64,000 nucleotides of DNA, taken from assembly GCA_965248455.1 (NCBI GenBank), contig OZ252105.1, forward strand, positions 1,754,737 through 1,818,736. The letters run 5' to 3'. This DNA is from Dehalococcoidia bacterium. Its GTDB lineage: Bacteria > Chloroflexota > Dehalococcoidia > Lucifugimonadales > Australimonadaceae. How positions within the stretch are numbered: position 1 is the stretch's first letter; every line of letters starts with the position of its first letter. A program made the position numbers and the translations under genes. Below, piece by piece: positions 1-14,610 of this stretch. The notes under the pieces were generated by a model. It was not told the DNA's origin. It worked only from the letters and a program-made list of their open reading frames with translations, and did no database searches.

Positions 1-518
1 ACCACCTGGGTCGCGGCGATGAGGTAGGAGCAGCGTCCCGGGCCTGCGGCGTGTAAGGACTGCGCATCGCCCGCGAACAGTACATACTCGATGCCACCGA
101 GCCCCCGCTGCGTGGACGAGATATTGTTCCGCACCACGTCCGTCGTGACGGAGGGATTGGCAGCAAGGAACGCGTCTATCCGTTCGGGCTGGACTACCGC
201 CCACGCGATGACGCTCGTCGAACGCCTGTCCAGCACCGGGCCGAGCCCTGACGCCTCCGAACGAGCCCACGCCACGCGTGCGCCGCGCCACGCCTCTCGT
301 GCATCATTCATCACAGCGTCCGACGGGGCTGCGCAGAGTGCGTCCACCGCATCGCTCAGCGCAGCCGTCTCTGAGGCCAGCGCCTCGTAACTCGGCACAA
401 TGACGTCGTCCGTGATGCTGGCGATGACCTCAGTCTCGGCCGGTCCGCCGGAGCCGCAGGCGGCAGTCGCGGCCATCAAAGCCCCGAACAGCAACAGGGC
501 ACGCGATGCGCCGATCAT
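1..518 (-). CDS. Imelysin-like lipoprotein, N-terminal part only (gene runs off the window start)
   Basis: Minus-strand translation from ATG (518-516) gives the lipoprotein signal MIGASRALLLFGALMAATAAC-GSGG, then an open frame to position 1. It is absent from the ORF track because there is no stop in the window. Its start overlaps the stop of the upstream DUF1111 gene by 1 nt (TAATG). Its position matches the usual imelysin / DUF1111 / imelysin-like cluster layout. Confidence 0.55.
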   Translation of the reverse strand, partial: MIGASRALLLFGALMAATAACGSGGPAETEVIASITDDVIVPSYEALASETAALSDAVDALCAAPSDAVMNDAREAWRGARVAWARSEASGLGPVLDRRSTSVIAWAVVQPERIDAFLAANPSVTTDVVRNNISSTQRGLGGIEYVLFAGDAQSLHAAGPGRCSYLIAATQV

Positions 519-1927
519 TACAAGGACTCCAGGAAGCGCAGCAGCGCGGCCCGCTCGTCCGCGGAGAGCAGCGTGAACGCGTCACGGGAAGCCTGTGCCT
601 CGCCGCCGTGCCAGAGGATGGCCTCCTCCAGACCGCGTGCTCGCCCGTCGTGCAGGAACATCGTGTGGTCGCTCACCACCGGCACCAGCCCGATGCCCCA
701 GAGCGGCGGCGTGCGCCACTCGCTGCCAACGGCTTGGCCTTCCTGATGCTCGTCGGCCAGCCCCTCTCCCATGTCGTGCAGGAGCAGGTCGGTGTAGGGA
801 TAGATGGTCTGCCCCCGCAGCGGGCGTACCGGACGCGACGCGTGCGTTACGTGCTGTGGCGTGTGGCAGGCGATGCAGTTGGCCTGCGCGAAGAGTTGCG
901 CGCCTTCCCGCACCTGCGGGTCGTCCATGTCGCGCATGGCGGGCACGGCGAGCGTCTGCACGTAGAACGCGACGGTGGCAAGGCGTTCGTCCTCGACCTC
1001 AGGTTCCCCTCCATTGGGAGCGTCCCGGCAGGCCTGTTGCGCGTCCGAACAGTTCTGGTTCGGGAAGAGCACCGAGGTGACGCCGATATCGCCGAGGAAT
1101 GCCCCCGCGGACTGCTGTTCAACGGTGGGCTGACCCGCCTTCCACCCGAACCGGCCTAATGCGGCGTTCCCGCTGCGCAGGTCAGTGACCATGTTCGGGC
1201 GGCCCGATATGCCGTCGTTGTCCACGTCGTCGGGATCTGCTGCGGCCAGGATGCGCTCCTCCGGGATCGCTTCCAGCAGCCCCATGCCGATGGTGGCGGG
1301 CGCGATGCGCGGCGACATCGTAACGTCCGGGTGCAGCGGGCCGAAGGCCAGCTCTGCTATCGAGTACGTGGGCTTGCGGAGCGAATACGGCGTCCCGTCC
1401 GGGTACGTACCCGCTACTTCCTCGTAACGGATGCTGATGCGGCCTTCAGGGGGAACGCGGAGGATGCCGCGATCCTGCAATTGCCCGCCGTACACCGGGT
1501 CGTCCTCGGGGCCGTCTGGGCCGGGCACGCTAAGCCGCAGCAGCAGACCGCGCTCCGGATCGTCGTCGTTCTCAGGCGGTTTCGCGCGTCCGTCGTGGGT
1601 GTGACATGACGCGCAGGCGAGGGCGTTGAACGTCGGACCCAGGCCGTCGCGCGCCGTCGTGGAGGCCGGCGCGGTAACCCAGTTCTGATTGAAGAAGCTG
1701 TCTCCCACCTCGAACCTGCGGCGCTCCTCGTTCGTAAGATTGCGCGCCGACAACTCGAATGCGTTGGTGCCGCTGCTGAACGCGGTCGTCTCTCCGCCAA
1801 GCGCCTCTGCGAACAGCAGCGACTCGTCTATCCGATTGCCCTGCGAGCAGGCAGCGACCGAGGTGGCCAGCAGCGCTGCTGCGATGAACATCGCCGCCGC
1901 CGCCAGCCACCTCGGTACGCACTTCAT
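518..1927 (-). CDS. DUF1111-family di-haem cytochrome c (imelysin-associated thiol oxidoreductase/peroxidase-like) lipoprotein
   Basis: ORF 518..1951. Two CxxCH haem motifs (CASCH, CIACH). The likely start is MKCVPRW..., with lipobox VAAC. Adjacent to an imelysin gene. Confidence 0.85.
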   Translation of the reverse strand: MKCVPRWLAAAAMFIAAALLATSVAACSQGNRIDESLLFAEALGGETTAFSSGTNAFELSARNLTNEERRRFEVGDSFFNQNWVTAPASTTARDGLGPTFNALACASCHTHDGRAKPPENDDDPERGLLLRLSVPGPDGPEDDPVYGGQLQDRGILRVPPEGRISIRYEEVAGTYPDGTPYSLRKPTYSIAELAFGPLHPDVTMSPRIAPATIGMGLLEAIPEERILAAADPDDVDNDGISGRPNMVTDLRSGNAALGRFGWKAGQPTVEQQSAGAFLGDIGVTSVLFPNQNCSDAQQACRDAPNGGEPEVEDERLATVAFYVQTLAVPAMRDMDDPQVREGAQLFAQANCIACHTPQHVTHASRPVRPLRGQTIYPYTDLLLHDMGEGLADEHQEGQAVGSEWRTPPLWGIGLVPVVSDHTMFLHDGRARGLEEAILWHGGEAQASRDAFTLLSADERAALLRFLESL

Positions 1928-1960
1928 CCGTGTTACGTGACCGTCCCTCACTGCATCAGG

Positions 1961-3118
1961 TTAACTGACGCTGATGGTAATGCCGATAGCTTCCGCCGCC
2001 GAAACGATCGTGTCGGTCTGGTTTTCCAGCGCAACGATGGTGTTCAGGACTGCCATACGCCCGGCGGAGGCGTCCGACACACCCTCACGCAGATGCTGGT
2101 CGAACGGCGCGGGGATCGCATTGGCGAGGCTGACGCTCCGCCGTATCTCGTCCTCCAACTGCTGGGCGAGTTCCTCGTCCTCTGCAGCGATCAGATCCAT
2201 CACGCCGGGGCCGGAAACGCTGCCGTAGTCACCGGTGTACACCAGCCAGACGCCGGTGGCGTTGGCGATGATGTCAGCAGTGGTGTTGTCCGCGAAGCAG
2301 GAGTGCTCGTCCTCCTGCGAACGCGCCTCGTAGGCGACCGCCATTCGCTCGCCTGCGAGCTCGCCCCTGCTCATCTCACCGATGCCGGTGATTATTCGTC
2401 TGAGCGCTTCGTCCGGGTCAACGGATAGGAACTCCGCGCGGTAGTTCCCGCTTTCACCGGGCGCCCAGGCGTCAACCATGTCGCGCAGGTGACGCACAAG
2501 CACGTCCGACGCGGTGGCGAGGTAGGCAGCGCGCCGCTCTGCGTTGGCCTTCGTGGTGTAGTCCTCCAACGGGCGCAGGCCGGGGCCGTCGTCGTTCATG
2601 TCCTGTCCCCAGAGCAGGAACTCGATGGCATGCCAGCCCGTGGAGATGTTTGCCTCGCCGCCTTCCTCGTTGAGGGAGACGATCAGGTCTGCGTCGATAA
2701 CCGGGAAGTCGCCGGGGTTGTTGATGATGCCCGCGTCTGCATCGCCCTCGACGTAGTCGACGTACGCCTCGTCGAGAGGCCACGCGTTGACCAGCCCTTC
2801 AGGGCCGTCTTCCTCATTGTCTATCGGGCCGTCGTAGAACCGGTATATCTCGGTGGGGCCGTAGTCGTCGCGGGCGAGCAGCCACGCGCGCTTCGCAGCA
2901 TCGAGCCGCACCGCCGACGGGGCCGCGAGGAAGCGGTCGATGGCCGCATCCAGCGTCTCGGCGCTCGCGAGGCTCTTCGAGTACATCGCGTGCGCGCCGT
3001 CGGCGTAGTTTCGTACGACGTCCTGCTTCAGGTCGTCGTCTGCTCCTCCACCGCTGCAGGCCGCCACCAGGCCGCCAATAACCGTGAGGAGTACGCAGAG
3101 AATCGCTAACTTACGCAT
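1961..3118 (-). CDS. Imelysin family (peptidase M75-like, IrpA-like) lipoprotein
   Basis: ORF 1961..3202. The internal start MRKLAILCVLLTVIGGLVAAC-SGGG is preceded by GGAGG. Contains an HAIEFLLWGQD imelysin-type motif. Confidence 0.8.
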   Translation of the reverse strand: MRKLAILCVLLTVIGGLVAACSGGGADDDLKQDVVRNYADGAHAMYSKSLASAETLDAAIDRFLAAPSAVRLDAAKRAWLLARDDYGPTEIYRFYDGPIDNEEDGPEGLVNAWPLDEAYVDYVEGDADAGIINNPGDFPVIDADLIVSLNEEGGEANISTGWHAIEFLLWGQDMNDDGPGLRPLEDYTTKANAERRAAYLATASDVLVRHLRDMVDAWAPGESGNYRAEFLSVDPDEALRRIITGIGEMSRGELAGERMAVAYEARSQEDEHSCFADNTTADIIANATGVWLVYTGDYGSVSGPGVMDLIAAEDEELAQQLEDEIRRSVSLANAIPAPFDQHLREGVSDASAGRMAVLNTIVALENQTDTIVSAAEAIGITISVS

Positions 3119-3217
3119 CAGTCGTCCTCCATGAGTTGAATCGAAACCGGACAACGTGGTTGACCGGCTCGTGCTGGTTGGTGATGAGTGACACAAGGGC
3201 ATTTACGTCCCTTGCCC

Positions 3218-3688
3218 TCACTCTCGGATGTTCTGCGCGAGGTAGTGCTCGGTGCCGACTTGGCGGATGGTCTCCTGCTGTGTCTCCAGCCAGTCGACGT
3301 GTTCCTCCTCTTCGCGCACCATGTCCTCCAGTATCTCGCGCGTGCCGAAGTCGCCTACTTGCTCGCAGTGCGCGATGGCCTCTGCCAGCGTCTCCAACGC
3401 CGACATCTCGGACTCCAGGTCCAGTTGCAGGTTTTCCTCAACGCTCTCGCCGATCTTGATCGGACCCAGACGCTGGAGGTTCGGCAGTCCTTCGAGGTAG
3501 AGGATGTGCCGCACGAGCTTCTGCGCGTCGCGCATCTCATCCATGCTGGCCTCGCGCATCTTCTCGGCGGTGCGCAGGAATCCCCAGTTCCGCACCATCT
3601 CGGACTGGATGAAGTACTGATTGATCGCGGTCAGATCTATCGTGAGCAGCTCGTTGAGACGGTCTACTATTCCCTCCCTGGCTTTCAT
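3218..3688 (-). CDS. bfr: Bacterioferritin
   Basis: ORF 3218..3787 trimmed to MKAREGIVDRLNELL... (157 aa). Ferritin-like di-iron residues are present (E..EMRDAQKL..., EEEEHVDWLE). Confidence 0.9.
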   Translation of the reverse strand: MKAREGIVDRLNELLTIDLTAINQYFIQSEMVRNWGFLRTAEKMREASMDEMRDAQKLVRHILYLEGLPNLQRLGPIKIGESVEENLQLDLESEMSALETLAEAIAHCEQVGDFGTREILEDMVREEEEHVDWLETQQETIRQVGTEHYLAQNIRE

Positions 3689-3750
3689 GTGTCCTCCTTG
3701 TGAGCAGCGTATGCCCTGTGCGTGAACCATCGGGCGAGGTGCTCCTGTGC

Positions 3751-3802
3751 ATACTGAGTATATACATAAGTATTGACAACTATGCAAGATAGGGTGTACT
3801 AA
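3751..3802. promoter_or_regulatory. Divergent bfr/bfd control region: tandem palindromes plus a TTGACA-N17/18-TACTAA promoter for bfd
   Basis: ATACTGAGTAT (3751-3761) and ATACATAAGTAT (3762-3773) are adjacent palindromes in the only AT-rich patch of the intergenic region. TTGACA lies at 3773-3778 and GTACTA/TACTAA at 3796-3802. Confidence 0.3.
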
Positions 3803-3835
3803 CTACCACAAGCAATGCTGACGTAGGAAAACGCC

Positions 3836-4033
3836 ATGTACGTATGTGTGTGCAACAGGATCTCCGTCCGTGAGTTGGCTGCGTCCTGGGCGGAGACGAA
3901 CCCTGACCTGGACCGTTTGGCCGAGAGGCTGGGGCTCTACAACGAGGAGTGCTGCGGGCGCTGCGCGGACGAGTTGGACGAACTCGTCGACGTAGCCGAA
4001 TGTTCAGCCTTGTCTGCCGGAGCCGCGCGATGA
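3836..4033 (+). CDS. bfd: Bacterioferritin-associated ferredoxin (BFD-like [2Fe-2S] domain)
   Basis: 65 aa. MYVCVCNRIS...CCGRC gives the C-x-C...C-x-x-C pattern typical of Bfd. Divergent from bfr. Confidence 0.85.
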   Translation: MYVCVCNRISVRELAASWAETNPDLDRLAERLGLYNEECCGRCADELDELVDVAECSALSAGAAR

Positions 4034-4224
4034 AACTCGGATGGAAGCGTCCCGCCAAGCCAGCCCCGACCGGTGGTGCGCCGGGCGCTGAACCCTGCAA
4101 TCACCGGTTTGCCCGGCACATCCGCCGCAGGAGCTACTGGGTGCGTTCCACCTTGATGACGGACACCAGCGTCGTCTGCTCCAACTGCGGTCAGCCCATC
4201 AACGGCCAACGCTCCGCCCGTTAA
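4030..4224 (+). CDS. Possible small basic protein (64 aa) translationally coupled to bfd
   Basis: Its ATG overlaps the bfd stop (ATGA at 4030-4033). It is in frame with ORF 3949..4224 and ends ...CSNCGQPINGQRSAR. No recognisable family. Confidence 0.25.
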   Translation: MKLGWKRPAKPAPTGGAPGAEPCNHRFARHIRRRSYWVRSTLMTDTSVVCSNCGQPINGQRSAR

Positions 4225-4317
4225 GCCGGTGCCTCCGAGCGGTTCCTTCTATAAGGACTTCCCAGCGAAAAGTTCGCAGTACCGTACGCTCCGGCCCGCC
4301 ACTTCCATCGACCCAGA

Positions 4318-4530
4318 ACTCCTGCCCCCTGCGCTGTGCCCTGACTTCGCCTTCTAGTCCGGGTTGCGGCGTGGAAGCATGCTCGCCGTCCAAAGCTTGG
4401 CCGTGATGCGCAGCTTCTCCCCGGAGGAGAGCCGCACGCGCTCGCGGTAGACATCGAAGCCTCGCTGTTCCATGCGGTCGAGCAGCCGGCTGTAGAGGCC
4501 ATGGAGGATCGCCGAGCACGCGCGCGACCG
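4318..4530. repeat. Direct repeat, left copy (hpnD 3' end plus 36 bp of downstream flank)
   Basis: 213 bp aligning without indels to 6946..7158 (offset 2628 bp), with 9 mismatches by manual alignment. Confidence 0.95.
4354..4530 (-). pseudogene. Orphan 3' fragment of a presqualene diphosphate synthase (hpnD-like) gene
   Basis: ORF 4354..4662 ends ...RSRACSAILHGLYSRLLDRMEQRGFDVYRERVRLSSGEKLRITAKLWTASMLPRRNPD. This is nearly identical to the C-terminus of the intact gene at 6982..7860. The upstream part of the ORF is unrelated. Confidence 0.85.
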
Positions 4531-4685
4531 TCCCATACTCCCTAAGAGGCTGACGCTGCTCGGAAAACGGCTGGGTGTGCTCAGCAGTGCAGCGACGCTT
4601 AGACTACTCCCATGATGTCTAGCGCGCTCAGGCTCAGTCGTACACCATGGGTCCGGCGCCACAGCAAACGGGCAGGTGTAACGCG

Positions 4686-5312
4686 CTAGTTGACGCGGAG
4701 CACCCAGACTTGGTGTTCCACGTCCGGTTCACCTGTGGGCATCACGTGCTGCGGGTCAGTGGCTTCCACTATCGTCAACGCGTCCGTCGCTTCCAGTTCC
4801 GCGTGCTTTTCTCTGAAACCATTCTCCGCATACACGTCCGGGCGAAGGGAATAGACGATGTAGCCGCCGGACTTCGTCACACGCACCAACTCGTCCAGCG
4901 CGCTGGCGGGCGCGTGGCCCACCGTGAACACTCCAACGCTCACCACGGCGTCAAAGCTGTCCGTTGCGTAGTCCAGGGTTTCGCCCAACACCATCTGGTC
5001 GTAGCTCTCGTAAGCCTGGGTCTTCCTGGCCACGTCCAGCATGCCTTCCGAGAGGTCCATGGCCACCAGCGAATGGTAGCCCCTCTCCTTGAGGACGCGG
5101 CCCACTAGTCCCGTGCCGGCGCCGGCGTCCAGGATGCGCGCGCGCGGCGGCACGTACCTCTGGAGAACCCCTGCCGCCAGCTGGGGGGCGGTCCACCCAA
5201 AGTCGCGCTCCAGGTCTGAGTCATAGTCCTCCGCCCATATGTCATAGCGGGACCGCAACTCGGTGACATCCGCGGATGAGTATATCCACTGCACTCTATT
5301 GTCATCTGTCAT
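4686..5312 (-). CDS. Class I SAM-dependent methyltransferase
   Basis: 208 aa. Motif I is ILDAGAGTGLVG. The N-terminal YDIWAEDYDSD is typical of small-molecule methyltransferases. Confidence 0.8.
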   Translation of the reverse strand: MTDDNRVQWIYSSADVTELRSRYDIWAEDYDSDLERDFGWTAPQLAAGVLQRYVPPRARILDAGAGTGLVGRVLKERGYHSLVAMDLSEGMLDVARKTQAYESYDQMVLGETLDYATDSFDAVVSVGVFTVGHAPASALDELVRVTKSGGYIVYSLRPDVYAENGFREKHAELEATDALTIVEATDPQHVMPTGEPDVEHQVWVLRVN

Positions 5313-5359
5313 GGCGTCTGCCTTGAGATTGGTTGAATGTTCAGGAGGGATTCCATCGG

Positions 5360-6187
5360 TTAACCTGCCGCCTCCGCCACGTAGAGACCCCAGCCGAGCT
5401 CCTCCCGGTCTACGGCCTCCACCATCTTGCCGTAGGCGAACGACAAGGCGGTCAGTTTCTCCTCGAGCTCGCCACGGGCATGTTCCCTGGCCTTGGCTTC
5501 CAGCATCTGATAACTGCGCTTCAGGTACGCGGAGAGGTTCTCGGCTTCCAGGATGGTGAAGCCGGTTTCCCGCAGGTAATCCTGATAGCCGGTGAAGCTG
5601 AAAGGCGTGTCAAAGAGAAGCCGGTCATAGACGTACTGGCGGGACTCGGCGCTCACCTCCGGCTTGGGCTTCAGCAGGTCGTCCAAGACCAGCAGGCCGC
5701 CGTCCTGCAGTACACGGCGAACCCCCTGGATGGCCGCCTGCTTGTCAGGGATATGGTAGATGGTAGCTTGGCTCCATACATGAGTGAACTCGCCGTCCGC
5801 AAAGGGCAACTCGGTGGCGGAGCCATGCTGGAAGCGCAGCAACTGTTGCAACTCCTTCGGTTCCTCGGTTGCCATCTCCTGTGCGTTGGCGATGCGGACG
5901 CCGCTCAGGTCGATGCCTGTGACCCGGCACCCGTACGTTCTGGCCAGCCACAGAGACGTGTTGCCGTTCCCGCACCCCAGGTCCAATACGTGGGCGCCTG
6001 CGGTGATGCGGGCCTTCGCCGCCATCACCGCGTCGAGACGAGCGCAAGCCTTCAAGAAGTCCCCATCCGTAGTCTCGTCGAAGTAGCCCCAGTGCAGGCT
6101 GCCCTCCGCATCCCAGAAGGAGCGGTAGATGGCGTCTTCGATATCGTAGAACTGCTCGGTCTCGGCTTCGCTAAACTGGCTGTTCAT
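5360..6187 (-). CDS. SAM-dependent methyltransferase of the sarcosine/dimethylglycine-N-MT, sterol/tocopherol-MT-like group
   Basis: ORF 5360..6286 trimmed to MNSQFSEAETEQFYD... Shows FYD..YRSFWD..SLHWGYF, then VLDLGCGNGNTSLWLA, HVWSQATIYH and VLQDGGLLVLDD. This layout recalls SDMT-type enzymes from memory. Its start overlaps the panD stop. Confidence 0.75.
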   Translation of the reverse strand: MNSQFSEAETEQFYDIEDAIYRSFWDAEGSLHWGYFDETTDGDFLKACARLDAVMAAKARITAGAHVLDLGCGNGNTSLWLARTYGCRVTGIDLSGVRIANAQEMATEEPKELQQLLRFQHGSATELPFADGEFTHVWSQATIYHIPDKQAAIQGVRRVLQDGGLLVLDDLLKPKPEVSAESRQYVYDRLLFDTPFSFTGYQDYLRETGFTILEAENLSAYLKRSYQMLEAKAREHARGELEEKLTALSFAYGKMVEAVDREELGWGLYVAEAAG

Positions 6188-6551
6188 ACTTACGCGTCCT
6201 GATATTCGTCCTGAGGTAGTCCACGAATCGGTTGTCCTCGTCCACGAGGATCTGCTTGGGCTCCAGGGGCTCGTCGGTGAGCTCATAGGCCAGAATCACG
6301 ACACAGTCGCCCGGCTCGCACAGGCGCGCGCCCGGGCCCTGCACGGCGATGGATCCAGAGCCGTATGCTGCTGGCAGGACGTAGGTCTCCCAGCGGTTGC
6401 CGTTGTTGACGTTGCAGATGACGACCTGTTCGTACTCCCACAGGTCGCACTTCTCCATGAGCGCCCGATCGATTTCCACGCTGCCGACATAGTCCAGCCC
6501 TGTGCCGGTGACATACCCTCGGTGAATCTTGGATTTCAATACTGTGCGCAC
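6171..6551 (-). CDS. panD: Aspartate 1-decarboxylase (pyruvoyl-dependent)
   Basis: 126 aa. MRTVLKSKIHRGYVTGTGLDYVGSVEID carries the self-processing G-S site. GTG start preceded by AGGAGG. Confidence 0.9.
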   Translation of the reverse strand: MRTVLKSKIHRGYVTGTGLDYVGSVEIDRALMEKCDLWEYEQVVICNVNNGNRWETYVLPAAYGSGSIAVQGPGARLCEPGDCVVILAYELTDEPLEPKQILVDEDNRFVDYLRTNIRTRKYEQPV

Positions 6552-6797
6552 GGCATCCTCCTAGTAATTCGGTTAGATCGAAGCCTAGGGAAGACGGCAG
6601 AGTGACCAATCAGGGAGAGACGGTCCACAGCCCCAGGCCAGCAATCGTAAGTCTCGGAGCGGTCTATCAAGCTCTGCCGAGGTGCAAGAACGTAGCCGCA
6701 GCTGCTAGTTGGGCTGAACGGCGTACGGCACTACAGAACCGACGCTCCAATGGTTTAGCGGTAGCGGCATAGTAGGTGGGTCGGTGGGGGGTGTCAA
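6552..6797 (-). promoter_or_regulatory. Promoter (TTGACA-N17-TACTAT) and ~210-nt structured 5' leader of the panD-MT-MT cassette
   Basis: On the minus strand, TTGACA is at 6797-6792 and TACTAT at 6774-6769. The leader has long-range complements (CGGCAGAG/CUCUGCCG, GGAGCG/CGCUCC) and a CCCUAG segment able to pair with the CUAGGAGG SD. Confidence 0.4.
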
Positions 6798-6945
6798 GGA
6801 AAGGTGCTCGTTCCTTACATACGAGACGGCGGAATCTGCCCCCTGCTCGGGGAGGACAGTGCAGACGAGAGCACCCCTCTAGGGCTGTCGACCACCCCAC
6901 TCCTTCCCGCGGGGGAGGAGGTTGAGCGCGACCGCAGCAACGGCC

Positions 6946-7158
6946 ACTCCTGCCCCCTGCGCTGCGCCCTGATTGCGCCTTCTAGTCCGGGTTGCGGCGT
7001 GGAAGCAGGCTCGCCGTCCAAAGCTTGGCCGTGATGCGCAGCTTCTCCCCGGAGGAGAGCCGCACGCGCTCGCGGTAGACGTCGAATCCCCGCTGTTCCA
7101 TGCGGTCGAGCAACCGGCTGTAGAGGCCATGGAGAATCGCCGAGCACGCGCGCGACCG
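6946..7158. repeat. Direct repeat, right copy (inside and just downstream of intact hpnD)
   Basis: Pairs with 4318..4530. Confidence 0.95.
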
Positions 7159-7860
7159 GGGCGAGAGGTAGGCCAGCAGCGTCTCACCCGACCGGAAGTA
7201 CTCGCGGGCGCGCTCGGCTTCGAAACGCATCATCGCGGCGAAGGCGTCGTTCACGAGACCCCGCATCAAGTCGTCCTCGGTATAGCCGAACCTCTTCAAG
7301 TCCTCCTGCGGAAGATAGACCCGGCCCGCATCAGCGTCCTCCCGAACGTCCCGCATGATGTTGGTGAGCTGCATGGCAAGACCCAGGTCCACGGCTGCCG
7401 CCGGGGCTCGCGGGTCGGTATAACCGAATATTTCGATGGAGATGAGCCCCACCACCGACGCAACGTGGTAGCAATACTCGCGCAGCTCGTCGAAGGTCTC
7501 GTAGCGGCGCGGCGCAAGGTCCATCTCGACGCCGTCGATGAGCTCCTCGAAGAGCGCCGGGTCGATGCCGTACTCATCCGCCGCATGGGTCAGCGCAACC
7601 AGAACGGGCCCCTGGGGCTGTCCTGCGAACGCTTGCCGTAGGTCCGCGCGCAGCTCGCGGAGCAGCTCCGTCTTGTCGGCGTTCGACGCATCGCCGTCTG
7701 CGATGTCGTCGGCGAGCCGAGCGAAGGCGTAGGCCGCGTAGATGGCGCGCCGCCGCCGGGCAGGTAGCGTGACGAAGGCGAAGTAGAAGTTGCGCGCCTC
7801 CCGCTTCGTGACCGCCTGGCAGTAGTCGTAGGCAGCGGCGATAGCAGGGGCAGTGGTCAT
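6982..7860 (-). CDS. hpnD: Squalene/phytoene synthase family, HpnD-like presqualene diphosphate synthase
   Basis: ORF 6982..7908 trimmed to MTTAPAIAAAYDYC..., giving an ATGA overlap with the upstream gene. Shows YAFARLADDIAD and YCYHVASVVG...DVRED motifs. Confidence 0.8.
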   Translation of the reverse strand: MTTAPAIAAAYDYCQAVTKREARNFYFAFVTLPARRRRAIYAAYAFARLADDIADGDASNADKTELLRELRADLRQAFAGQPQGPVLVALTHAADEYGIDPALFEELIDGVEMDLAPRRYETFDELREYCYHVASVVGLISIEIFGYTDPRAPAAAVDLGLAMQLTNIMRDVREDADAGRVYLPQEDLKRFGYTEDDLMRGLVNDAFAAMMRFEAERAREYFRSGETLLAYLSPRSRACSAILHGLYSRLLDRMEQRGFDVYRERVRLSSGEKLRITAKLWTASLLPRRNPD

Positions 7861-8777
7861 GCGGCCCTCCGCAGCGCCAGCCGCAAGGCCGTGGACGCCA
7901 TGAGCCATAGCTTGCGGCCGGAGGTGACGACAGGACGGTTCGTCAACACGTCGTACTGCTGGCGGCGTATGGCTTCGAGGATGCTCATGCCGCCCTTGGT
8001 GAACAGGGCGATATCGAGCTTGAACCGGCCATCGAGGCGCTCGATGAGCGCGTAGCCCTGCTCGAATAGCTGCTGGGCGCGGTCCACCTCGAACGCCATC
8101 AGCTTCCGCAGATTGTCGTTAACCACGCCCGCTGCCAGGCTCTCTTCGGTGTAGCCGAAGCGCTCCATATCCTCCAGCGGCAGATAGATGCGGCCCATGT
8201 CGTGATCCCGCTTCACGTCCTGCCAGAAGTTGGCCAGTTGGAGTGCGGTACAGGTCGCATCGGATAGTTGATGGCTCTCCTCGGATCGATCTCCGAGCAC
8301 GTAGAGCACCATGTGCCCCACGGGGTTCGCCGAGTGGTCGCAGTAGTGCAGAAGGTCGTCATACGTGGGAAAGCGAACCTTCCCCTGATCCATGCGATTC
8401 GCCTGAATGAGCTTGCGGAACGGCGTATCGGGGATATCGAAGCGGCGAATGGTGTCCTGGAGCGCGACCACGATGAGGTGCGATGGCTGACCGCCGTAGG
8501 CTTGCGCGAGCGCCTCCTCCCACTCGCTGAGCTGGGCGAGCCTGTCGCCCGAGGCCTCGTCGCCGAGGTCGTCGGTCTGGCGGCAGAAGGCGTAGACGGC
8601 GTAGAAGTAGGGTCTCACGCTGCGAGGCAGCAGCAGCGAGCCGACGGTGAAGTTCTCGTAGTGGGCCTTGGCTAGACGCTCGCAGTGGGCGTATGCCTCG
8701 TCCAGACCGGGCGGCTTGCCGATGGCGCGATGCGTTGCCACGCTTGCTCCGGCAAGGGGAGTAGGGCTTACGGTCAC
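7857..8777 (-). CDS. hpnC: Squalene/phytoene synthase family, HpnC-like hydroxysqualene synthase
   Basis: 306 aa. AHYENFTVGSLLLPR and YAFCRQTDDLGDE are typical of HpnC. First gene of the hpnC-hpnD pair. Confidence 0.8.
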   Translation of the reverse strand: MTVSPTPLAGASVATHRAIGKPPGLDEAYAHCERLAKAHYENFTVGSLLLPRSVRPYFYAVYAFCRQTDDLGDEASGDRLAQLSEWEEALAQAYGGQPSHLIVVALQDTIRRFDIPDTPFRKLIQANRMDQGKVRFPTYDDLLHYCDHSANPVGHMVLYVLGDRSEESHQLSDATCTALQLANFWQDVKRDHDMGRIYLPLEDMERFGYTEESLAAGVVNDNLRKLMAFEVDRAQQLFEQGYALIERLDGRFKLDIALFTKGGMSILEAIRRQQYDVLTNRPVVTSGRKLWLMASTALRLALRRAA

Positions 8778-8878
8778 ATGAACACCGCTTGAGCGTGTCC
8801 AGGGCGACCGTTCAGACCGTGAGGCACGGCACTTACGCCACCCCTCGCCAATCTAGGTACGTCAGGCGGGAGTATACC

Positions 8879-9922
8879 TCACTTATCACGCGTGACGAAA
8901 TAATCCGCCATCGCCTGGATGCTCTCCTTCGCCTCGGACGGGAGCTGAAGCCCTTCGAGCGCATCCATCGCGCCGGAGGCTTGGCTGACCGCGGTCTGCT
9001 GCACAACCGCCTCGCTGTCGAGTTCAGCGAGCAAATCGAGAACGCGCTCGATGTCGTCGCCCGCCACCTCCTCCGCGGCGTAAGCGGTTCGGAGCCATTC
9101 GCGCTGCGCATCGTTCGCGCGTTGGAACAGGTGGACGATGGGCATGCTCTTCTTCTTGCGCTTGATATCGGAGCCGACCGGCTTACCCGTCGCCGCCGGG
9201 TCGCCCCAGATGCCGAGCAGGTCGTCGCGCACCTGGAATGCAAGCCCGAGCTTACGTCCGCACGCGCCGAACGCCTCCGCCGTCCTGGCGTCGCCGGTGG
9301 CCACCAGCGAGCCGAGGTACATGGCGCAGTCGATGAGCGCGCCCGTCTTGCGCGAGATCATGTCAAGGTAGGCGTCAGTCGTGACGTCGTCGGAGTCCTC
9401 GAAGGACATGTCCAGGTACTGGCCTTCGATCATCTCGACGTAGCGCGATGTCAGCGCGAGGGACGCCGCCATGACGGTGGACGCCGCAAGGCCGGTCTCC
9501 GACAGCGCCAGGAGCGTCTGATCGGCCACGACGCGCATCGCGTTGCCGGCGGCAATAGCCTCGTGGACGCCGAACACCGTCCACGCCGTCGACCGGCCTC
9601 GCCTTGTCGTATCCCTATCCTGGATATCGTCGTGGAGCAGTGAGAAGTTGTGGATAAGCTCCAGCGCCGCAGCGGCGGGGAGAGCGTCATGCCAGTCGCC
9701 GCCGTTGATCTCGCAGGACGCAAGCACGAGCACGGGGCGCAGCCCTTTGCCCGCGTCCTCGGCGGCGGGGTTGCCGTCGCGATCCTGCCACCCAAGGTGG
9801 TAGCGCAGCATGCTGAAGAGGCCGGTCTCGGAGTCGGGCACCGAGCGTCGAACCTGCTGCCTGATGTCAGCGGTGTACCGCTCGACGAGAGCTGCAACCC
9901 GACGTTCGGAGGAGACGGTCAA
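8879..9922 (-). CDS. Polyprenyl diphosphate synthase (FPP/GGPP synthase family)
   Basis: 347 aa. First aspartate-rich motif LLHDDIQDRD and second DDLLGIWGD. Confidence 0.9.
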   Translation of the reverse strand: MTVSSERRVAALVERYTADIRQQVRRSVPDSETGLFSMLRYHLGWQDRDGNPAAEDAGKGLRPVLVLASCEINGGDWHDALPAAAALELIHNFSLLHDDIQDRDTTRRGRSTAWTVFGVHEAIAAGNAMRVVADQTLLALSETGLAASTVMAASLALTSRYVEMIEGQYLDMSFEDSDDVTTDAYLDMISRKTGALIDCAMYLGSLVATGDARTAEAFGACGRKLGLAFQVRDDLLGIWGDPAATGKPVGSDIKRKKKSMPIVHLFQRANDAQREWLRTAYAAEEVAGDDIERVLDLLAELDSEAVVQQTAVSQASGAMDALEGLQLPSEAKESIQAMADYFVTRDK

Positions 9923-9948
9923 CCTGTCACCTGAGAGTGCCGCGTCGC

Positions 9949-11850
9949 CTATCCGGCTGCGGCTTCCCGATTCCTCTGCGGCGACGCTCCTGGGAAGAAG
10001 GCAGTCAGGATCTGCTGGACGATACCCTCTGCGTCCAGCTCCAACCGGTGCCTCTGAGCAGCCGCAGTGCTGTGCTCGATGAAAGAGTCAGGGAAGCCGA
10101 TGCGGTGAACCGACACATCCTCCATCCCAGCCTCGGCAAGCGCCTCGAGCACGGCGGAGCCGAACCCTCCAGCCAGCACGTTCTCTTCCACGGTAACGAT
10201 GCGCCGCGTGCTGCGGGCCGCGTCCAGCAGCAGTTCAGTGTCGAGAGGCTTCACGAAGAGCGGGTTCACGACGCCGCATACGATGCCGTACTCGGCGAGC
10301 TTGTCCGCCGCTTCCACAGCCGCGCTGCCCGGCTTGCCCAGAGCGAAGATAACGACATCGCGCCCCTCCCTGACCACCGCGCCGCGTCCGAGCGGCAGCT
10401 GCCGCAGGTTCTTGTCGAGCGGCGCGCCGGTGGCCGCGCCCCTCGGTATGCGGATGGCGAAGGGGCCCGGGTGCTTGTACGCGGTGTAGATGAGATGCTG
10501 CAGGTCGTTCTCGTCCATCGGAACCGCAACGATTGCGTTGGGGATGCACCGCAGGTACGAGATATCGAACGCGCCGTGGTGCGTCTTGCCGTCCTCGCCA
10601 ACGATACCGGCCCGATCGGCGATCAGCGTCACGGGCAGGTTCTGTAGGCAAACGTCATGCACGATCTGATCGAACGCCCGCTGGAGGAAGGTGGAGTAGA
10701 TCGAGACGAAGGGATGGAGGCCGGAGGAGGCCATGCCCGCCGCCATGCTGACGGCATGCTGCTCCGCGATGCCCACGTCGAAGACTCTGCTGGGGAACTC
10801 GTGCCGCACTTCCTCCAGCCCCGTGCCTTCGAGCATCGCCGCGGAGATACCGACGACGGATTCGTCGTCGCGCATGAGGCGCTGAATGGTCTGCGCGAAC
10901 ACCTTCGAGTAGGTGGGCGCTCCCGTCGAGGCCCCCAGAGGCGAACTTGGCTGGTGAAATCTGATGGGGTCGTCCTCGGCTGGCTCGTAGCCGTGCCCCT
11001 TGTGCGTCACAACGTGGATCAGAGGGACGGAGCCGGTGGGTATTCTGGCTTGCCGGAGCGTCTCTTCGAGCTGCTTGATATCGTGGCCGTCCACGGGACC
11101 GAGGTATTGGAATCCCAACTCGGTCCAGAACGTGGTGGGCACGATGATGCTGTCCAGCCCGCCACTGAACCTCTTGACGAGCCGGTAAACCATGTCGCCC
11201 GTAGGCACCCTCTTCGATAGCGCCTTCATGCGCCCGATCATCGCCTGGTACTCGGGGTGAGTGAGCACGCGTTTGCGCCAGTTGGTGAGGAAGCCGATGT
11301 TCTCGGAGATGGACATGCCGTTGTCGTTCAGAACGACAACGAACTTCTCCGGGTTGAGATGCACGATATTGTTCAGCGCCTCGAAGCTCGAGCCTGACGT
11401 CATCGCCCCGTCGCCCACCACCGCGATGGTCCAGGAGTCCGCCTTCCGGTTCGCCGCGCCTTGCGCTATGCCCAGAGCTATCGAAAGGCCCGTGCCGGCG
11501 TGCCCTGCCGCGAGAGTGTCATGTGGGCTTTCGCTCGGTTCCCCGAACCCGGACAGCCCGCCCTCCAGGCGGATGGCCTGGAACTCGTCGCGCCGCCCCG
11601 TCACCAGCTTGTGCGTGTAGCACTGGTTGGTCGTGTCCCAGACGATGCGGTCGATGGGGCTGTCGAAAACGCGGTGGAGCGCCAGCGTAATCTCAACGAC
11701 CCCCAGGTTCGACGCTAGGTGGCCGCCGCGCTCGGTTATCACAGAGATGATGGTGTCTCGAACCTCTTGCGCAACCTGAACCAGCTCCGCTCGAGTCAGA
11801 GCCTTCAGGTCGCTCGGTGCATCGATCTGGTCCAACAGACGGCTTACCAT
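9949..11850 (-). CDS. dxs: 1-deoxy-D-xylulose-5-phosphate synthase
   Basis: 633 aa. The N-terminus LLDQIDAPSDLKAL..., the GHAGTGLS TPP-binding region and the overall length are typical of Dxs. Confidence 0.95.
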   Translation of the reverse strand: MVSRLLDQIDAPSDLKALTRAELVQVAQEVRDTIISVITERGGHLASNLGVVEITLALHRVFDSPIDRIVWDTTNQCYTHKLVTGRRDEFQAIRLEGGLSGFGEPSESPHDTLAAGHAGTGLSIALGIAQGAANRKADSWTIAVVGDGAMTSGSSFEALNNIVHLNPEKFVVVLNDNGMSISENIGFLTNWRKRVLTHPEYQAMIGRMKALSKRVPTGDMVYRLVKRFSGGLDSIIVPTTFWTELGFQYLGPVDGHDIKQLEETLRQARIPTGSVPLIHVVTHKGHGYEPAEDDPIRFHQPSSPLGASTGAPTYSKVFAQTIQRLMRDDESVVGISAAMLEGTGLEEVRHEFPSRVFDVGIAEQHAVSMAAGMASSGLHPFVSIYSTFLQRAFDQIVHDVCLQNLPVTLIADRAGIVGEDGKTHHGAFDISYLRCIPNAIVAVPMDENDLQHLIYTAYKHPGPFAIRIPRGAATGAPLDKNLRQLPLGRGAVVREGRDVVIFALGKPGSAAVEAADKLAEYGIVCGVVNPLFVKPLDTELLLDAARSTRRIVTVEENVLAGGFGSAVLEALAEAGMEDVSVHRIGFPDSFIEHSTAAAQRHRLELDAEGIVQQILTAFFPGASPQRNREAAAG

Positions 11851-11890
11851 GTGAGGATCTCCTTATGGAGTGTCGGCTGCGACCCTGGCT

Positions 11891-12178
11891 TCACCATTTC
11901 GAGGACTCTTCCGAGTAAACGTGGTCGGGCAATGAGTAGCGGATTCCCTCCTCGTCGTACAGTGCAGAATCGAGCAAGGACGTGAATCTGCTGAAGTTGG
12001 TATCTTCGCGGCGGGTCCGAAGCAGCTTGCTCAGGATCTCGCCATAACGATTTTGCAGCTTGAACCACGGGACAGCGCCAAAGGAGGACAAAGGCGGATA
12101 TTCCAGTGCATTCGCAGTCTTATTTCCGATGAGTCCGCGGGAGACGCGGGCGCTGATCCGAGCCAGACGTTCCGTCAT
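11891..12178 (-). CDS. Hypothetical protein (95 aa)
   Basis: ORF 11891..12241 trimmed to MTERLARIS..., which is preceded by GGGAGG. Local GC is lower than the surroundings. No recognisable domain. Confidence 0.4.
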   Translation of the reverse strand: MTERLARISARVSRGLIGNKTANALEYPPLSSFGAVPWFKLQNRYGEILSKLLRTRREDTNFSRFTSLLDSALYDEEGIRYSLPDHVYSEESSKW

Positions 12179-12297
12179 AGGGCAGTCCTCCCGTCTCCTT
12201 ATAACTGAGGCCGTTCCCAAGTACCGGAGGTATCGCTCCAACTACGCAGTCCCGCAATAATAGCACGCCGCCTGTCTCGCAGTGTCCAGCCAACAGA

Positions 12298-12433
12298 GCG
12301 ACAAACGCCCATTGCGCCGACGCCGCGCCAGCCCATACAGTGGTTGGGCGCGTCGTTACGACGAAATCGCCCCGTCGTTCCCGCGAAGGCGGGAACCTCG
12401 CCCTCGGCCCCATCGCCCGCATAGACGAGAGGC
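12298..12433 (+). repeat. A-H element copy (promoter-like module A plus hairpin H) feeding into the tRNA-like array
   Basis: GCGACAAACGCCCATTGCGCCGACGCCGCGCCAGCCCATACAGTGG, with TTGCGC at 12312-12317, a 17-18 bp spacer and ATACAG/TACAGT at 12335-12341. Hairpin GTTCCCGC-GAAG-GCGGGAAC at 12377-12396. Ends in GACGAGAGG, where the iterons start in other copies. Confidence 0.8.
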
Positions 12434-12436
12434 TGT

Positions 12437-12508
12437 GGGCATTAGCTCAGTCAGTTAGAGCGTCGCGTCCACATCGCGGAAGCCAGAGGTTCGAGTCCCT
12501 ACCGCCCA
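12437..12508 (+). pseudogene. Degenerate tRNA-like sequence (anticodon-loop TCCACAT, Val-CAC-like)
   Basis: The D-arm GCTC-AGTCAGTTA-GAGC is intact. Defects: a 1-nt deletion in the 5' acceptor strand, acceptor mismatches, C at position 33, and the same aberrant T-arm as the other copies. No TATACT promoter in front. Confidence 0.4.
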
Positions 12509-12692
12509 TCACCGCTATCGGCCCAGGACTCCTGACCCCTGCGCTGCGGTTCAATTCCGCCTTCGAGTGCAACAACGGGACTCCGGCAGCGACGTACCAG
12601 CCTGAGCCGAAGCGAAGGTCAGCGGCTCTTCTCCCTCCGAACATCACGGGGCACGGAGGCCGAGCCTCAGCAGACATGCGGACGTGAACCGC

Positions 12693-12722
12693 TGGACTGC
12701 CCTGCGAGGCCAACCCTATACT
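12693..12722 (+). promoter_or_regulatory. Putative promoter of tRNA-like copy 2 (TGGACT-N18-TATACT)
   Basis: TATACT at 12717-12722, 11 nt upstream of the tRNA-like 5' end. The same module precedes copy 3. Confidence 0.35.
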
Positions 12723-12733
12723 CGAAAGACTGT

Positions 12734-12806
12734 GTGCGATTGGCCCAGCTGGCTAGAGCGTCGCGTTCACATCGCGGAGGCCAGAGGTTCGAGTCCCTAT
12801 CGCCCA
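12734..12806 (+). tRNA. tRNA-like gene, anticodon CAC (Val), non-canonical T-arm
   Basis: Manual cloverleaf. Acceptor GTGCGAT/ATCGCCC pairs 6 of 7 (U2-C71 mismatch). U8, A14, G18G19 and A21 are present. Anticodon stem TCGCG/CGCGG with loop TTCACAT. The T-loop TTCGAGT has only 4 nt (CCCT) on the 3' side of the stem, which requires a bulged A51. Confidence 0.5.
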
Positions 12807-12990
12807 TCACCGCTATCGGCTCAGGGCACCTGACCCCTGCGCTACGGTTCAATCGTGCCTTCGAGTGCAACGAGGGGATCCCGACAGCGACGTACCGTCC
12901 TGAGCCGAAGCGAAGGTCAGCGGCTCTTCTCCCTCCGAACATCACGGGGCACGGAGGCCAAGCCTCAACAGACATGTGGACGTGAACCGC

Positions 12991-13020
12991 TGGACTGCCT
13001 CGCGGGGCCAACCCTATACT
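12991..13020 (+). promoter_or_regulatory. Putative promoter of tRNA-like copy 3 (TGGACT-N18-TATACT)
   Basis: TGGACT at 12991-12996 and TATACT at 13015-13020. Confidence 0.35.
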
Positions 13021-13031
13021 CGAAAGACTGT

Positions 13032-13107
13032 GCGCGGTTGGTTCAGTTGGTTAGAGCGTCGCGTTCATATCGCGGAGGTCGGCGGTTCGAGTCCCTACCG
13101 CCCGCCA
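13032..13107 (+). tRNA. tRNA-like gene, anticodon CAT (Met/Ile2-type), encoded CCA, non-canonical T-arm
   Basis: Acceptor GCGCGGT/ACCGCCC pairs 6 of 7 (C2-C71). Anticodon loop TTCATAT. T-arm GGCGG-TTCGAGT-CCCT again needs a bulge (C51). G73 is followed by CCA. Confidence 0.5.
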
Positions 13108-13156
13108 CTTCCAGCCTAAGACAGTCGTGGAATTCAACCCAAGTGGAGGCAAATAT

Positions 13157-14019
13157 ATGTCCATCGATGATAAATTGAATAGTATCTCCACTCTAATCGA
13201 GGTAACCACGAGCACTGGTACTTTTCGGGGAACGGGGTTCTTCTACAATCAGTATGCGCCCACGGACAAACAGGGGCTTCAATACCGTCACATTGACGCA
13301 ATGTGGGTTGTGACCAATCGTCACGTATTGCTGCCCGGGCAGCAGGGTGTCGCATTTGCACCTTCAGCAGTGACGCTAAATATTCGCAAACTTACTGAAT
13401 CAGGTTTTATGGTTTGGGAACCGATCAAGTTATCGGCCGAAGAAGTCGAGACCCTTGCACGGTTTCATCCAAATAGGGCTGTAGATGTCGCCGCCATCAA
13501 TATCCTGGATCACTTTATTGAACGGTTCAATTCCAGTGATAAATACGTCGCGCCACATGCGCTTTCAGTTAAGGATCTCCCAGGAGACAATAGCGCAGAT
13601 ATAGAAGTGGCAAGTGACGTAATTATAGTAGGGTATCCAAGAGGCTTTTATGACAAGGTCAATCTCTTCCCCATTGTGAAGTCGGGAATCGTCGCTTCTC
13701 GTTGGGGTGTTGGTTTCGAAGGTAACCCATACTTCCTAATTGATTCCAAGCTGTTTCCAGGCTCTTCTGGGAGTGTGGTACTTTCAAAGCCTAACGATCT
13801 AATGATTAAGAACGGGCAAGTATGTATGCCGCAGAAAAGCATTTTTCGCTTTTGGGAATCTTTTCGGGTGAGCCCCAGTTTGAGGAACCTCCAGTGGAGA
13901 TCGGTGATCTCGTTGTCACACATAAGATCGGCTTTAATCTTGGAGTTGTTTGGTATGGCGAGTTGATTGAGGAGGTCATTTGCCAAGGCGTCCCTCCGAG
14001 CCAGGCATTGGCACCTTAA
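13157..14019 (+). pseudogene. Trypsin-like (S1/Trypsin_2-type) serine peptidase, frameshifted
   Basis: ORF 13127..13966 has an internal ATG at 13157 after GGAGG. It carries GTGFFY..VVTNRHV (His) and FPGSSGSVV (Ser). The reading frame switches near 13810-13835 into ORF 13822..14019 (...LLGIFSGEPQF...GVVWYGELIEEV). The region is visibly lower in GC. Confidence 0.7.
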
Positions 14020-14129
14020 GAACGGTACGCGGTGGAGCGAGCGATACCCAACCTCCACCCGATGCGCTGCTGGCACGGATCCCAGCCTCCCGCCCTCGCG
14101 GACGCGACGGGTTCGCCGAGCGCAATCCT

Positions 14130-14488
14130 GCGACAAACGCCCATTGCGCCGTCGCCGCGCCAGCCCTTACAGTGGTCGTATGCGTCGTTACGACGAAGGC
14201 ATATCGTCGTTCCCGCGAAGGCGGGGACCTCGCATCCCTGCCCCACGCAGACGAGAGGAATGAGACTGAATGAAACTAAATGAGACTGTTTTAAAAGTTC
14301 GTCACTCCTGGCCACTCGTGATGAAGCCAACCAAGGCCACAGCGAGGCCACGCTGGCTCAGCGCGTACGAGTGAACGGAGACCCAAACGAGACCACCCCG
14401 GCCTCATTTTCAGCCTCCCGACTAGGAGTGAATGGGGACAGATAGAGCCAAATGAGTCCTTGATTTGAAATTTACCCCTGAGGCGGCC
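14130..14488 (+). repeat. Complete A-H-B-C element (copy R1)
   Basis: Module A is 14130-14200, with TTGCGC at 14144-14149, N17, and TTACAG at 14167-14172. H hairpin at 14209-14228. Iterons AATGAGACTG / AATGAAACTA / AATGAGACTG at 14259-14288. TTTTAAAAGTTCGTCACTCCTGGCCACTC at 14289-14317. Module C runs to GAGGCGGCC at 14488. Confidence 0.9.
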
Positions 14489-14544
14489 CCCTACAGGTCC
14501 TTTCTCCCTCGGAGGACGGCTAAGATGAGAGTGAAGCCCCCAGC

Positions 14545-14610
14545 GCGTCTACGAGAGGAATGATCGGAAATGAGAGGAAATGAGAGGAAATTAAAAGTTT
14601 GCCACTCCTG
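14545..14610 (+). repeat. Solo B module 38 bp upstream of the enolase-superfamily gene
   Basis: CTACGAGAGG, then iterons AATGATCGGA / AATGAGAGGA / AATGAGAGGA (14559-14588), then AATTAAAAGTTTGCCACTCCTG. Confidence 0.85.

Follow-up and report, generated by a model that had tools for sequence, protein, structure and literature searches.

Phage 21/e14 integrates into the 3′ end of icd in Escherichia coli with its own integrase and one fixed attachment (att) core, and integrative and conjugative elements (ICEs) and cis-mobilizable elements (CIMEs) accrete at the 3′ end of fda in Streptococcus thermophilus, where the CIMEs have short identical att sites and need the integrase of a cognate ICE. Here we analyze a related anatomy in a 64,000-nucleotide (nt) stretch of a Dehalococcoidia bacterium (GenBank assembly GCA_965248455.1, contig OZ252105.1, positions 1,754,737 to 1,818,736; hereafter, the window). 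In it, the 3′ end of hpnD, the gene for presqualene diphosphate synthase, occurs both in the intact gene and as an orphan fragment, and the two copies bracket a cassette with a panD-like gene and two methyltransferase genes (MT1 and MT2). This arrangement is a recombinant of two allele types found in close relatives, and homologous recombination between dispersed copies of the hpnD end probably explains it.

Like phage 21/e14 at icd, the hpnD locus has the 3′ end of a coding gene duplicated, an intact end that differs mostly synonymously, and an orphan 3′ fragment at the far side. Unlike phage 21/e14, it has no recombinase, its repeats vary in length, its modules are small and metabolic, and the duplication is older than the cassette. 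With ICE/CIME accretion at fda, and with tandem islands at tRNA genes, it shares tandem modules behind one gene and direct repeats of the 3′ end, and in those systems too some modules lack an integrase; unlike at CIMEs, neither an integrase nor a constant core was found at hpnD, the copies are long and unequal, and one boundary is a truncated gene. Of the features expected of an integrase-driven island, the locus thus has the target 3′-end repeats and an empty site and lacks a recombinase and a constant att core. The locus also resembles Campbell-type or unequal recombination between rrn operons or copies of insertion sequences (ISs), in that exactly the material between repeats distinguishes the alleles, breakpoints fall within the repeat, the parental configurations are found side by side, and the pattern of divergence changes at the junction as in a mosaic. 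The difference from the rrn and IS cases is that the hpnD repeat is a fragment of a single-copy biosynthetic gene, a portable homology for swapping metabolic modules among strains. The anatomy is therefore known in kind and calls for no new principle; the use of such fragments as anchors is what is new.

A direct repeat of the hpnD 3′ end

The two copies of the hpnD end, R1 on the right and R2 on the left (Table 1), form a direct repeat of 213 nt that aligns without gaps and is identical at 204 of 213 positions (96%). The next-best repeat within the surrounding 6 kb covers only 28 nt at 79% identity, so chance is excluded. Each copy consists of the final 177 nt of hpnD, TAG included, and 36 nt of downstream flank (alpha36). 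Six of the nine mismatches lie in the 177 coding nt, of which five are synonymous and one is a Leu-to-Met change in the orphan, and the other three lie in the 36 nt past the TAG. An initial annotation, made from the letters of the window alone, had described gapless 213-nt repeats with nine mismatches, comprising the last ~175 bp of hpnD and 36 bp of flank, the right copy within the intact gene and the left copy an orphan. Repeat search and alignment bear this description out: the right copy closes a 308-amino-acid (aa) HpnD that scores above its family cut-off, and the hpnD homology of the left copy ends abruptly at 4530.

Among 11 copies from the species group described below, R1 has three synonymous changes that are private to the window, and R2 has two, GAT (synonymous) and ATG (the Leu-to-Met change), so that private changes are more numerous in the intact copy than in the orphan. 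Two polymorphic sites are common to the R1 and R2 positions of different strains, which suggests repeated exchange or conversion among the copies. With six coding differences and polarizing outgroups 12% away, a synonymous/nonsynonymous test has too little power to separate two functional alleles from decay in place.

Allele types in close relatives

We compared the window with about 30 contigs that are 94 to 99% identical to it, found via MT1 homologues, members of the MT1, HpnD, and PanD clusters, and the window's bfd protein; look-ups by exact sequence with the window's hpnD and MT2 gave no hit. Downstream of hpnD, the genomes of this species group have an array of modules split by direct copies (R) of the hpnD 3′ end. 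Module A, the cassette, has the order promoter-leader-panD-MT1-MT2. Module B has the order bfd-bacterioferritin-imelysin-DHOR (di-haem oxidoreductase)-imelysin-HTTM, and module C encodes a 293-aa protein and a 505-aa nitroreductase-like protein. Four allele types can be recognized: the dominant type I, type II, type 0, and type III, which is that of the window.

Type II is found in L083/L187, L186, and L188, with truncated forms in L184, L185, and L189, and has the order hpnD-R, module B, a spacer (s), an orphan 177-nt hpnD end, a flank that we call beta, and module C. These genomes hold the empty site that the initial annotation had proposed to look for, with hpnD directly followed by the flank at 4318, and are 98 to 99% identical to the window in L083/L187, L186, and L188. 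In L083, positions 5979-10962 correspond to window 11932-6946 (96.8%) and positions 10751-15279 to window 4530-1 (98.5%); L188 1-4502 corresponds to window 29-4530 at 99.1%, and L186, whose contig of 2.96 Mb is marked as circular by the suffix _c in its name, shows the same arrangement. In L083, modules B and C are bounded by hpnD ends at 10910, 17484, and 20273, all three on the same strand.

Type 0, known from L099, had been predicted from the type I remnant and the window before that contig turned up. It has hpnD, the cassette with MT2, 14 HTTM codons plus s, the orphan hpnD end, beta, and module C; L099 2618-10413 runs colinear with window 12149-4354 (96.0% identity), MT2, s, and the orphan included, before it leads into module C. 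Type I (L081, L087-L098, and L100-L103) has hpnD, the 36-nt flank, a 148-nt spacer, the promoter, panD, and MT1. After the MT1 stop, L081 and at least 15 other contigs have the last 17-19 nt of hpnD (ACGCCGCAACCCGGACTAG), then the beta flank and module C. Type I therefore reads as type 0 without MT2 and s and with just 19 nt of the orphan left, apparently through a deletion at an "AC" microhomology. Types I, 0, and II occur together in one sample, ERZ25071132 (L081, L099, and L186, respectively). Altogether, extra copies of the hpnD end are present in seven of the eight loci with module B and in most type I loci, and the R copies are 94 to 98% identical over 177 to 213 nt, within and between strains.

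The spacer s of the window is homologous to the region before the orphan in cassette-free relatives (L083 17201-17501 = window 4652-4353, 94.7%). Because genomes without the cassette already have the orphan together with the spacer upstream of it, as a boundary of module B, the duplication of the hpnD end was not made by insertion of the panD cassette. The initial annotation had read the repeat as the footprint of Campbell-type or site-specific integration of the cassette. What stands of this is that the cassette is a discrete unit of presence and absence and that recombination went through the duplicated hpnD end; the repeat is not the footprint of the cassette's own arrival. There are no repeats at the cassette's own edges, one of which is a truncated HTTM gene, and the 14-codon HTTM remnant beside the orphan indicates that type 0 came from a type II-like ancestor in which the cassette replaced most of module B.

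The presence of extra copies that are old and widespread in the species group (R2 and the third copy, att3, described below), together with the 4% difference between the two window copies, might be taken to mean that the hpnD end and its downstream region were duplicated in place long ago and have since been fixed, decaying, and immobile. We regard this as highly improbable. Relatives that are 96 to 99% identical differ by whole modules exactly at the repeats, the intact copy rather than the orphan has more private changes, and the divergence of the flanks is mosaic. Neither the empty-site alleles nor the type 0 allele is compatible with an ancient fixed duplication, and the relatives do not all share one arrangement.

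The window as a recombinant of types 0 and II

The type III order in the window is hpnD-R, module A, HTTM remnant-s-R, module B. The window matches type 0 exactly to the stop codon of the orphan, and it matches type II exactly from the first base of the orphan on; it is thus a type 0 × type II recombinant, with the exchange inside the 177- to 213-nt repeat. The upstream side of R2 continues like the orphans of types 0 and II, and its downstream side continues like the intact hpnD end of type II genomes. On the hpn side the window is 95.5-96.2% identical to L188 and on the module B side 99.1%, and the switch falls exactly at the repeat. The orphan itself is mosaic: its first ~145 nt have the alleles of type 0 orphans, and its last ~30 nt, like the flank, show no difference from L188, which brackets the crossover, though only for an L188-like parent. 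The exchange would have paired the orphan on a type 0 chromosome with the intact end of hpnD on a chromosome of type II, and the 4% difference between the window copies would mainly be the divergence of the two parental lineages (about 4%), plus the two private changes of the orphan.

How could such an exchange come about? The best explanation is probably homologous recombination of the RecA type, whether Campbell-type or unequal, between dispersed copies of the hpnD end, with no dedicated integrase needed. We favor it because the copies share 177 to 213 nt at 94 to 98% identity, because no recombinase was found in the modules and open reading frames (ORFs) scanned, and because copy lengths and boundaries are unequal. 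A shared length of 177 to 213 nt at 96 to 98% identity is ample for RecA-type recombination. The long similar repeats are accompanied by both parental configurations among the relatives and by a change of ancestry across the junction. The initial annotation had noted that no integrase is present, and we likewise detected no recombinase in the cassette, in modules B and C, or in 10 further large ORFs of the window; an IS110 transposase lies 54 kb away. Two routes are conceivable. After DNA transfer, two chromosomes could have undergone a double crossover out of register; alternatively, a circle could have looped out between a pair of R copies and then inserted by the Campbell route. In an earlier step, cassette A may have entered the slot by illegitimate replacement of module B, leaving the 14 HTTM codons, and the first duplication of the hpnD end would be older still.

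Several observations weigh against homologous exchange. Type III is seen in no other assembly and so rests on one, and the step in divergence at the repeat is equally expected from a chimeric join of two co-occurring strains. With one type III allele and few informative sites in R, there is too little to map crossovers across several strains, and scattered crossovers, as in homologous exchange, look the same as one fixed, site-specific crossover. The bracketed crossover, in the last ~30 nt of hpnD, overlaps the 19-mer left in type I, which fits a specific core. In addition, a hybrid tRNA-Val/hpnD junction shows that a site-specific system touched the region at least once.

The first two of these points concern the assembly itself. 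Types 0, I, and II co-occur in one sample, and type III could be a chimera in which type 0 and type II strains of one sample were joined via their shared hpnD end, giving the abrupt shift in identity to the nearest relative. We consider this improbable. The join would depend on just 177 to 213 nt of shared sequence, and a 2.8-Mb contig is on record with proteins identical to PanD and MT2 of the window. The relatives are long-read style contigs, for which so short an overlap would normally be rejected and single reads would be expected to span the 2.6-kb unit. Moreover, the two private substitutions of the orphan, one of them Leu to Met, are expected of a real, unconstrained copy, and similar orphans occur in many independent assemblies, so the left repeat is unlikely to be the assembly artefact that the initial annotation had considered as a refutation.

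The last of these points concerns a third copy of the hpnD end, att3, of about 125 nt, which follows module C in most strains. At its 5′ edge, att3 is fused to tRNA-Val(gac), of which the 3′ 27 nt are present on the opposite strand, and the junction (TGGTGGGCGGTAGGGGACTCGAAC|CTCGACCGCAT) is identical in ten loci (L083, at 20137-20289, and L087, L090, L092-L095, L097, L099, and L102). The hpnD sequence at the junction, CTCGACC, resembles a tRNA T-arm (CTCGAACC). This fusion hints at an aberrant event by a tRNA-targeting element in the older, first duplication of the hpnD end. Between the att3 junction and the full tRNA-Val gene lie variable defence-type genes (BrnT/A, HEPN, AAA/HNH, and Pnkp-Hen1). 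A second unusual case is L090 (ENA ERZ23495149 scaffold_21658, a 4,480-nt short-read scaffold), whose two ends overlap exactly over 54 nt and which can be read as a circle of panD, MT1, module C, an hpnD copy, the spacer, and the promoter. L090 may represent an excised circle or a tandem duplication, or the assembly may have looped through the repeat, and a loop in the assembly graph explains it as well as a circle does.

It is tempting to take these signs to mean that the hpnD 3′ end is an attachment site, and that a site-specific recombinase from another locus, such as the tRNA-Val-associated islands, moves the integrase-less modules. All copies are direct, and modules are gained and lost as precise units. 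The crossover in the last ~30 nt of hpnD overlaps the 17- to 19-mer that survives in type I, and the partner fused to att3, the 3′ end of a tRNA gene, is a classical integrase target, as the T-arm likeness of the junction also recalls. Relatives have the island genes AlpA, VapE, and PriCT_2 downstream of module C, L091 has a tyrosine integrase upstream of the hpn cluster, and the circular-contig signature of L090 joins module C, R, and the cassette. We nevertheless judge this reading unlikely. No recombinase lies in or beside any module. The copies of the hpnD end measure 213, 177, about 125, and 19 nt and differ in their 5′ and 3′ outer boundaries, so that the site-specific mechanism of tRNA-targeting islands, invoked by the initial annotation, is not indicated; the 19-mer of type I is simply what a microhomology deletion would leave. 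The cassette edges have no repeat, one edge being the truncated HTTM gene, the shared repeat length suffices for RecA-type recombination, and the circle of L090 can be an assembly-graph loop. The narrower proposal, in which the last ~20-30 nt of hpnD are the true attachment site served in trans by a recombinase, with the tRNA-Val(gac)-island integrase as the candidate, is at least as doubtful. If it were true, modules for osmolyte synthesis, iron storage, and nitroreductase would be picked up, cut out as circles, and arrayed behind a hopanoid gene, as an integron-like or CIME-like platform in Chloroflexota. Two further ideas were considered and rejected: an IS-mediated origin of the arrangement, and an integron cassette array, whose inverted-repeat attC sites are not matched by junctions made of hpnD fragments and for which no integrase was found.

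With homologous exchange as the preferred reading, the hpnD locus is a clean natural case of small metabolic modules being exchanged and stacked among strains of an uncultured, slow-growing lineage with no mobile-element machinery. The 3′-end fragments of a core gene act as portable homology, while hpnD itself stays intact. Because the parental alleles and several deletion derivatives coexist, some in one sample, the locus can serve as a marker for recombination among co-occurring strains in long-read metagenomes. There is also a caution for annotators: orphan gene ends around an insert need not mark the integration of that insert.

The panD-methyltransferase cassette

The 2,415 nt between the repeat copies hold a promoter-like site, a leader, the panD-like gene, MT1, and MT2, with all genes on the minus strand (Table 1); each of these parts had been listed in the initial annotation and is confirmed here. 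The leader matches no Rfam family at gathering or permissive thresholds, and its single-sequence fold is unremarkable (z = −0.19). PanD has the Gly-Ser self-cleavage motif (LDYVGS) expected of a self-processing Asp_decarbox protein, scores 95.7 bits against the TIGR00223 equivalog (cut-off, 106), and is present as an identical protein on 14 contigs. For MT1, a protein with 920 homologues at E ≤ 1e-20, the best NCBIfam match is the sarcosine/dimethylglycine N-methyltransferase (SDMT) model, at 107 bits against a cut-off of 550, so MT1 is not an SDMT. Among solved structures, those of MitM, an SDMT-like protein, and PEAMT come closest to it. MT2 scores 23 bits against the same SDMT equivalog.

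Table 1. Coordinates of features in and around the hpnD locus (window positions)
Feature	Position	Strand	Remarks
Module B part, running off the left end of the window	1-4317		Directly follows hpnD in empty-site relatives
DHOR gene (di-haem oxidoreductase)	518-1951	-	Module B
Imelysin/Peptidase_M75 gene	1961-3202	-	Module B
Bacterioferritin gene	3218-3700	-	Module B
bfd-like gene	3836-4033	+	Module B
Left copy R2	4318-4530	-	Orphan hpnD end 4354-4530 plus alpha36 4318-4353; hybrid
Last 17 nt of hpnD, GCCGCAACCCGGACTAG	4354-4370; second copy 6982-6998	-	Sole remainder of the orphan in type I, right after the MT1 stop
Spacer s	4531-4652		Truncated HTTM-family gene: promoter region plus its first 14 codons (4612-4653, plus strand)
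MT2, class I S-adenosylmethionine (SAM) methyltransferase, 208 aa	4686-5312	-	METTL27-like proteins nearest
MT1, class I SAM methyltransferase, 276 aa	5360-6190	-	Start overlaps the panD end
panD-like aspartate 1-decarboxylase, 126 aa, GTG start	6171-6551	-	Pfam Asp_decarbox PF02261, E 1e-36 to 4e-36
Leader, about 210 nt	6552-6768	-	Upstream of panD; kept with the cassette in L084, partly in L082
Promoter-like TTGACA-17 nt-TACTAT	6769-6797	-	Kept with the cassette in other genomic contexts (L084, L082)
alpha2 spacer, 148 nt	6798-6945	-	Cassette-bearing alleles only
Right copy R1	6946-7158	-	Intact hpnD end 6982-7158 plus alpha36 6946-6981
hpnD, presqualene diphosphate synthase, intact	6982-7908	-	308-aa ORF; Pfam SQS_PSY; NCBIfam TIGR03465
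hpnC, squalene synthase HpnC	7857-8777	-	TIGR03464, 322 bits (cut-off, 250); upstream neighbour of hpnD

The panD-MT1-MT2 operon is widely conserved in Dehalococcoidia and marine relatives. Its order is kept in about 70 of 80 metagenomic loci, which are mostly marine and 51 to 60% identical, and none of these loci adjoins hpnC/D. L082 keeps the order as well, with an MT1 that is 80% identical and a fourth methyltransferase gene. In L084 the cassette adjoins a methylmalonyl-CoA mutase gene and is 91.7% identical in nucleotides from the -35 box to the MT1 stop (6797-5358), which exceeds the 86% identity of the hpn genes of that contig; the MT1 protein of L084 is also recorded on a 2.89-Mb contig of L002. 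The alpha2 spacer does not accompany the cassette where it lies elsewhere (L084), and its first 60-85 nt also follow att3 in some relatives. MT2 was lost twice independently, in the type I deletion, which reaches to within 19 nt of the orphan's end, and in L084, where a 58-nt remnant is left (10835-10892). Since the dominant type I allele keeps only panD and MT1, the end product of the pathway may differ between strains.

Glycine betaine can be made via glycine/sarcosine N-methyltransferase (GSMT) and SDMT, and β-alanine betaine is synthesized in plants (reviewed in PMC6657504). The cassette resembles the GSMT/SDMT system in having two small-molecule SAM methyltransferases in one operon, with SDMT as the best NCBIfam model for MT1, and it includes the enzyme for the presumed amine substrate, β-alanine. 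Unlike that system, MT1 is not an SDMT, MT2 is nearest to METTL27-like proteins, and the product is putative. From the conserved panD-MT1-MT2 operon and the resemblance to amine and small-molecule N-methyltransferases, we give an even chance to the proposal that the operon makes β-alanine from aspartate and then N-methylates it toward β-alanine betaine, a compatible solute. The case for this function is tempered by its basis in family resemblance and gene order, by the distance of MT1 below the SDMT cut-off, and by the literature searched, in which no bacterial pathway combining panD with N-methyltransferases is described and a lead from DVU_1556 proved fruitless. If the proposal is true, the cassette would be a genetic source for this osmolyte in bacteria.

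Upstream of panD, the marine relatives (L109, L112, L117, L123, L141, L146, and others) have a conserved noncoding element of ~170 nt, at a distance of about 90-270 nt from the gene. Its motifs are CCAACCGCATAACCCC, a CGCCA...TGGCG hairpin, and ACCGATATAGAAACTTGCGGTCAAAA. The element has no Rfam match and almost no covariation, and its homology to the leader in the window is uncertain; it is a candidate cis-regulatory RNA or operator.

The hpn genes and the remodelled downstream region

HpnD scores 297.3 bits against the TIGR03465 equivalog (cut-off, 278.6) and has hpnC as its neighbour; in relatives it is called as a 292-aa form, with the start at 7860. A scan with HpnD, one genome per species, found uncultured Dehalococcoidia as the nearest relatives, with 88 to 89% aa identity in L001-L003 and 70% in L004. 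hpnE directly follows hpnD in these four and in about 40 genomes that are more distant (L001-L010, at about 10925-12260, and others). The same order is seen in many other bacteria. There is no tblastn match to hpnE anywhere in the 64-kb window, and hpnE is also absent from the loci of all strain-level relatives. Synteny of these genomes with the window ends within about 10 nt of the hpnD stop codon. Together, the position of hpnE in the outgroups, its absence here, and the loss of synteny at the hpnD stop indicate that the whole region downstream of hpnD was remodelled in the window's lineage.

The beta flank that follows the orphan in types 0 and II is about 65-70% identical to the 5′ end of outgroup hpnE over ~45 nt, a short match that is not firm. 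The resemblance suggests that the orphan before module C may mark the original hpnD/hpnE junction, with ~45 nt of beta as a decayed hpnE 5′ end. A search of the hpnE neighbourhood in L001-L004 did not reveal where the 36-nt flank and the alpha2 spacer of 148 nt come from.

Other features of the window

The initial annotation had also seen the same pattern of a duplicated gene end at a nitroreductase gene. There is indeed an 81-nt orphan 3′ end there, 88% identical to the gene (56425-56505), in the order RDD-family gene, 200-aa nitroreductase, second RDD-family gene, and orphan (54744-56505). This locus resembles an RDD-nitroreductase pair that was duplicated in tandem long ago and then lost most of its second nitroreductase to an internal deletion; it does not resemble an insertion polymorphism.

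At 12436-13106, three tRNA genes lie in a 298-nt tandem repeat with units that are 90% identical: two copies of tRNA-Val(CAC) and a related copy (83-87%) with a CAT anticodon, called tRNA-Met. An anticodon switch after duplication is possible for this last copy. The array stands in place of the MMPL and MPAB genes that most relatives have upstream of dxs. At 51469-54613, a 23S rRNA gene is followed by tRNA-Met; there is no 16S or 5S match in the 64-kb window, so the rRNA genes appear to be unlinked.

An intergenic repeat family with members of about 60-380 nt, 75 to 92% identical, occurs at 12147-12420, 14070-14610, 20818-21217, 50936-51130, and 62130-62810, and the same family edges variable regions in relatives (e.g., L083 579-947 and L091 2115-2483). 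The IS110-family element at 60947-62142, with its transposase gene at 60972-61931, has a 99.7%-identical counterpart in L092 (16466-17660), in the variable region downstream of module C, and is recently active or shared.

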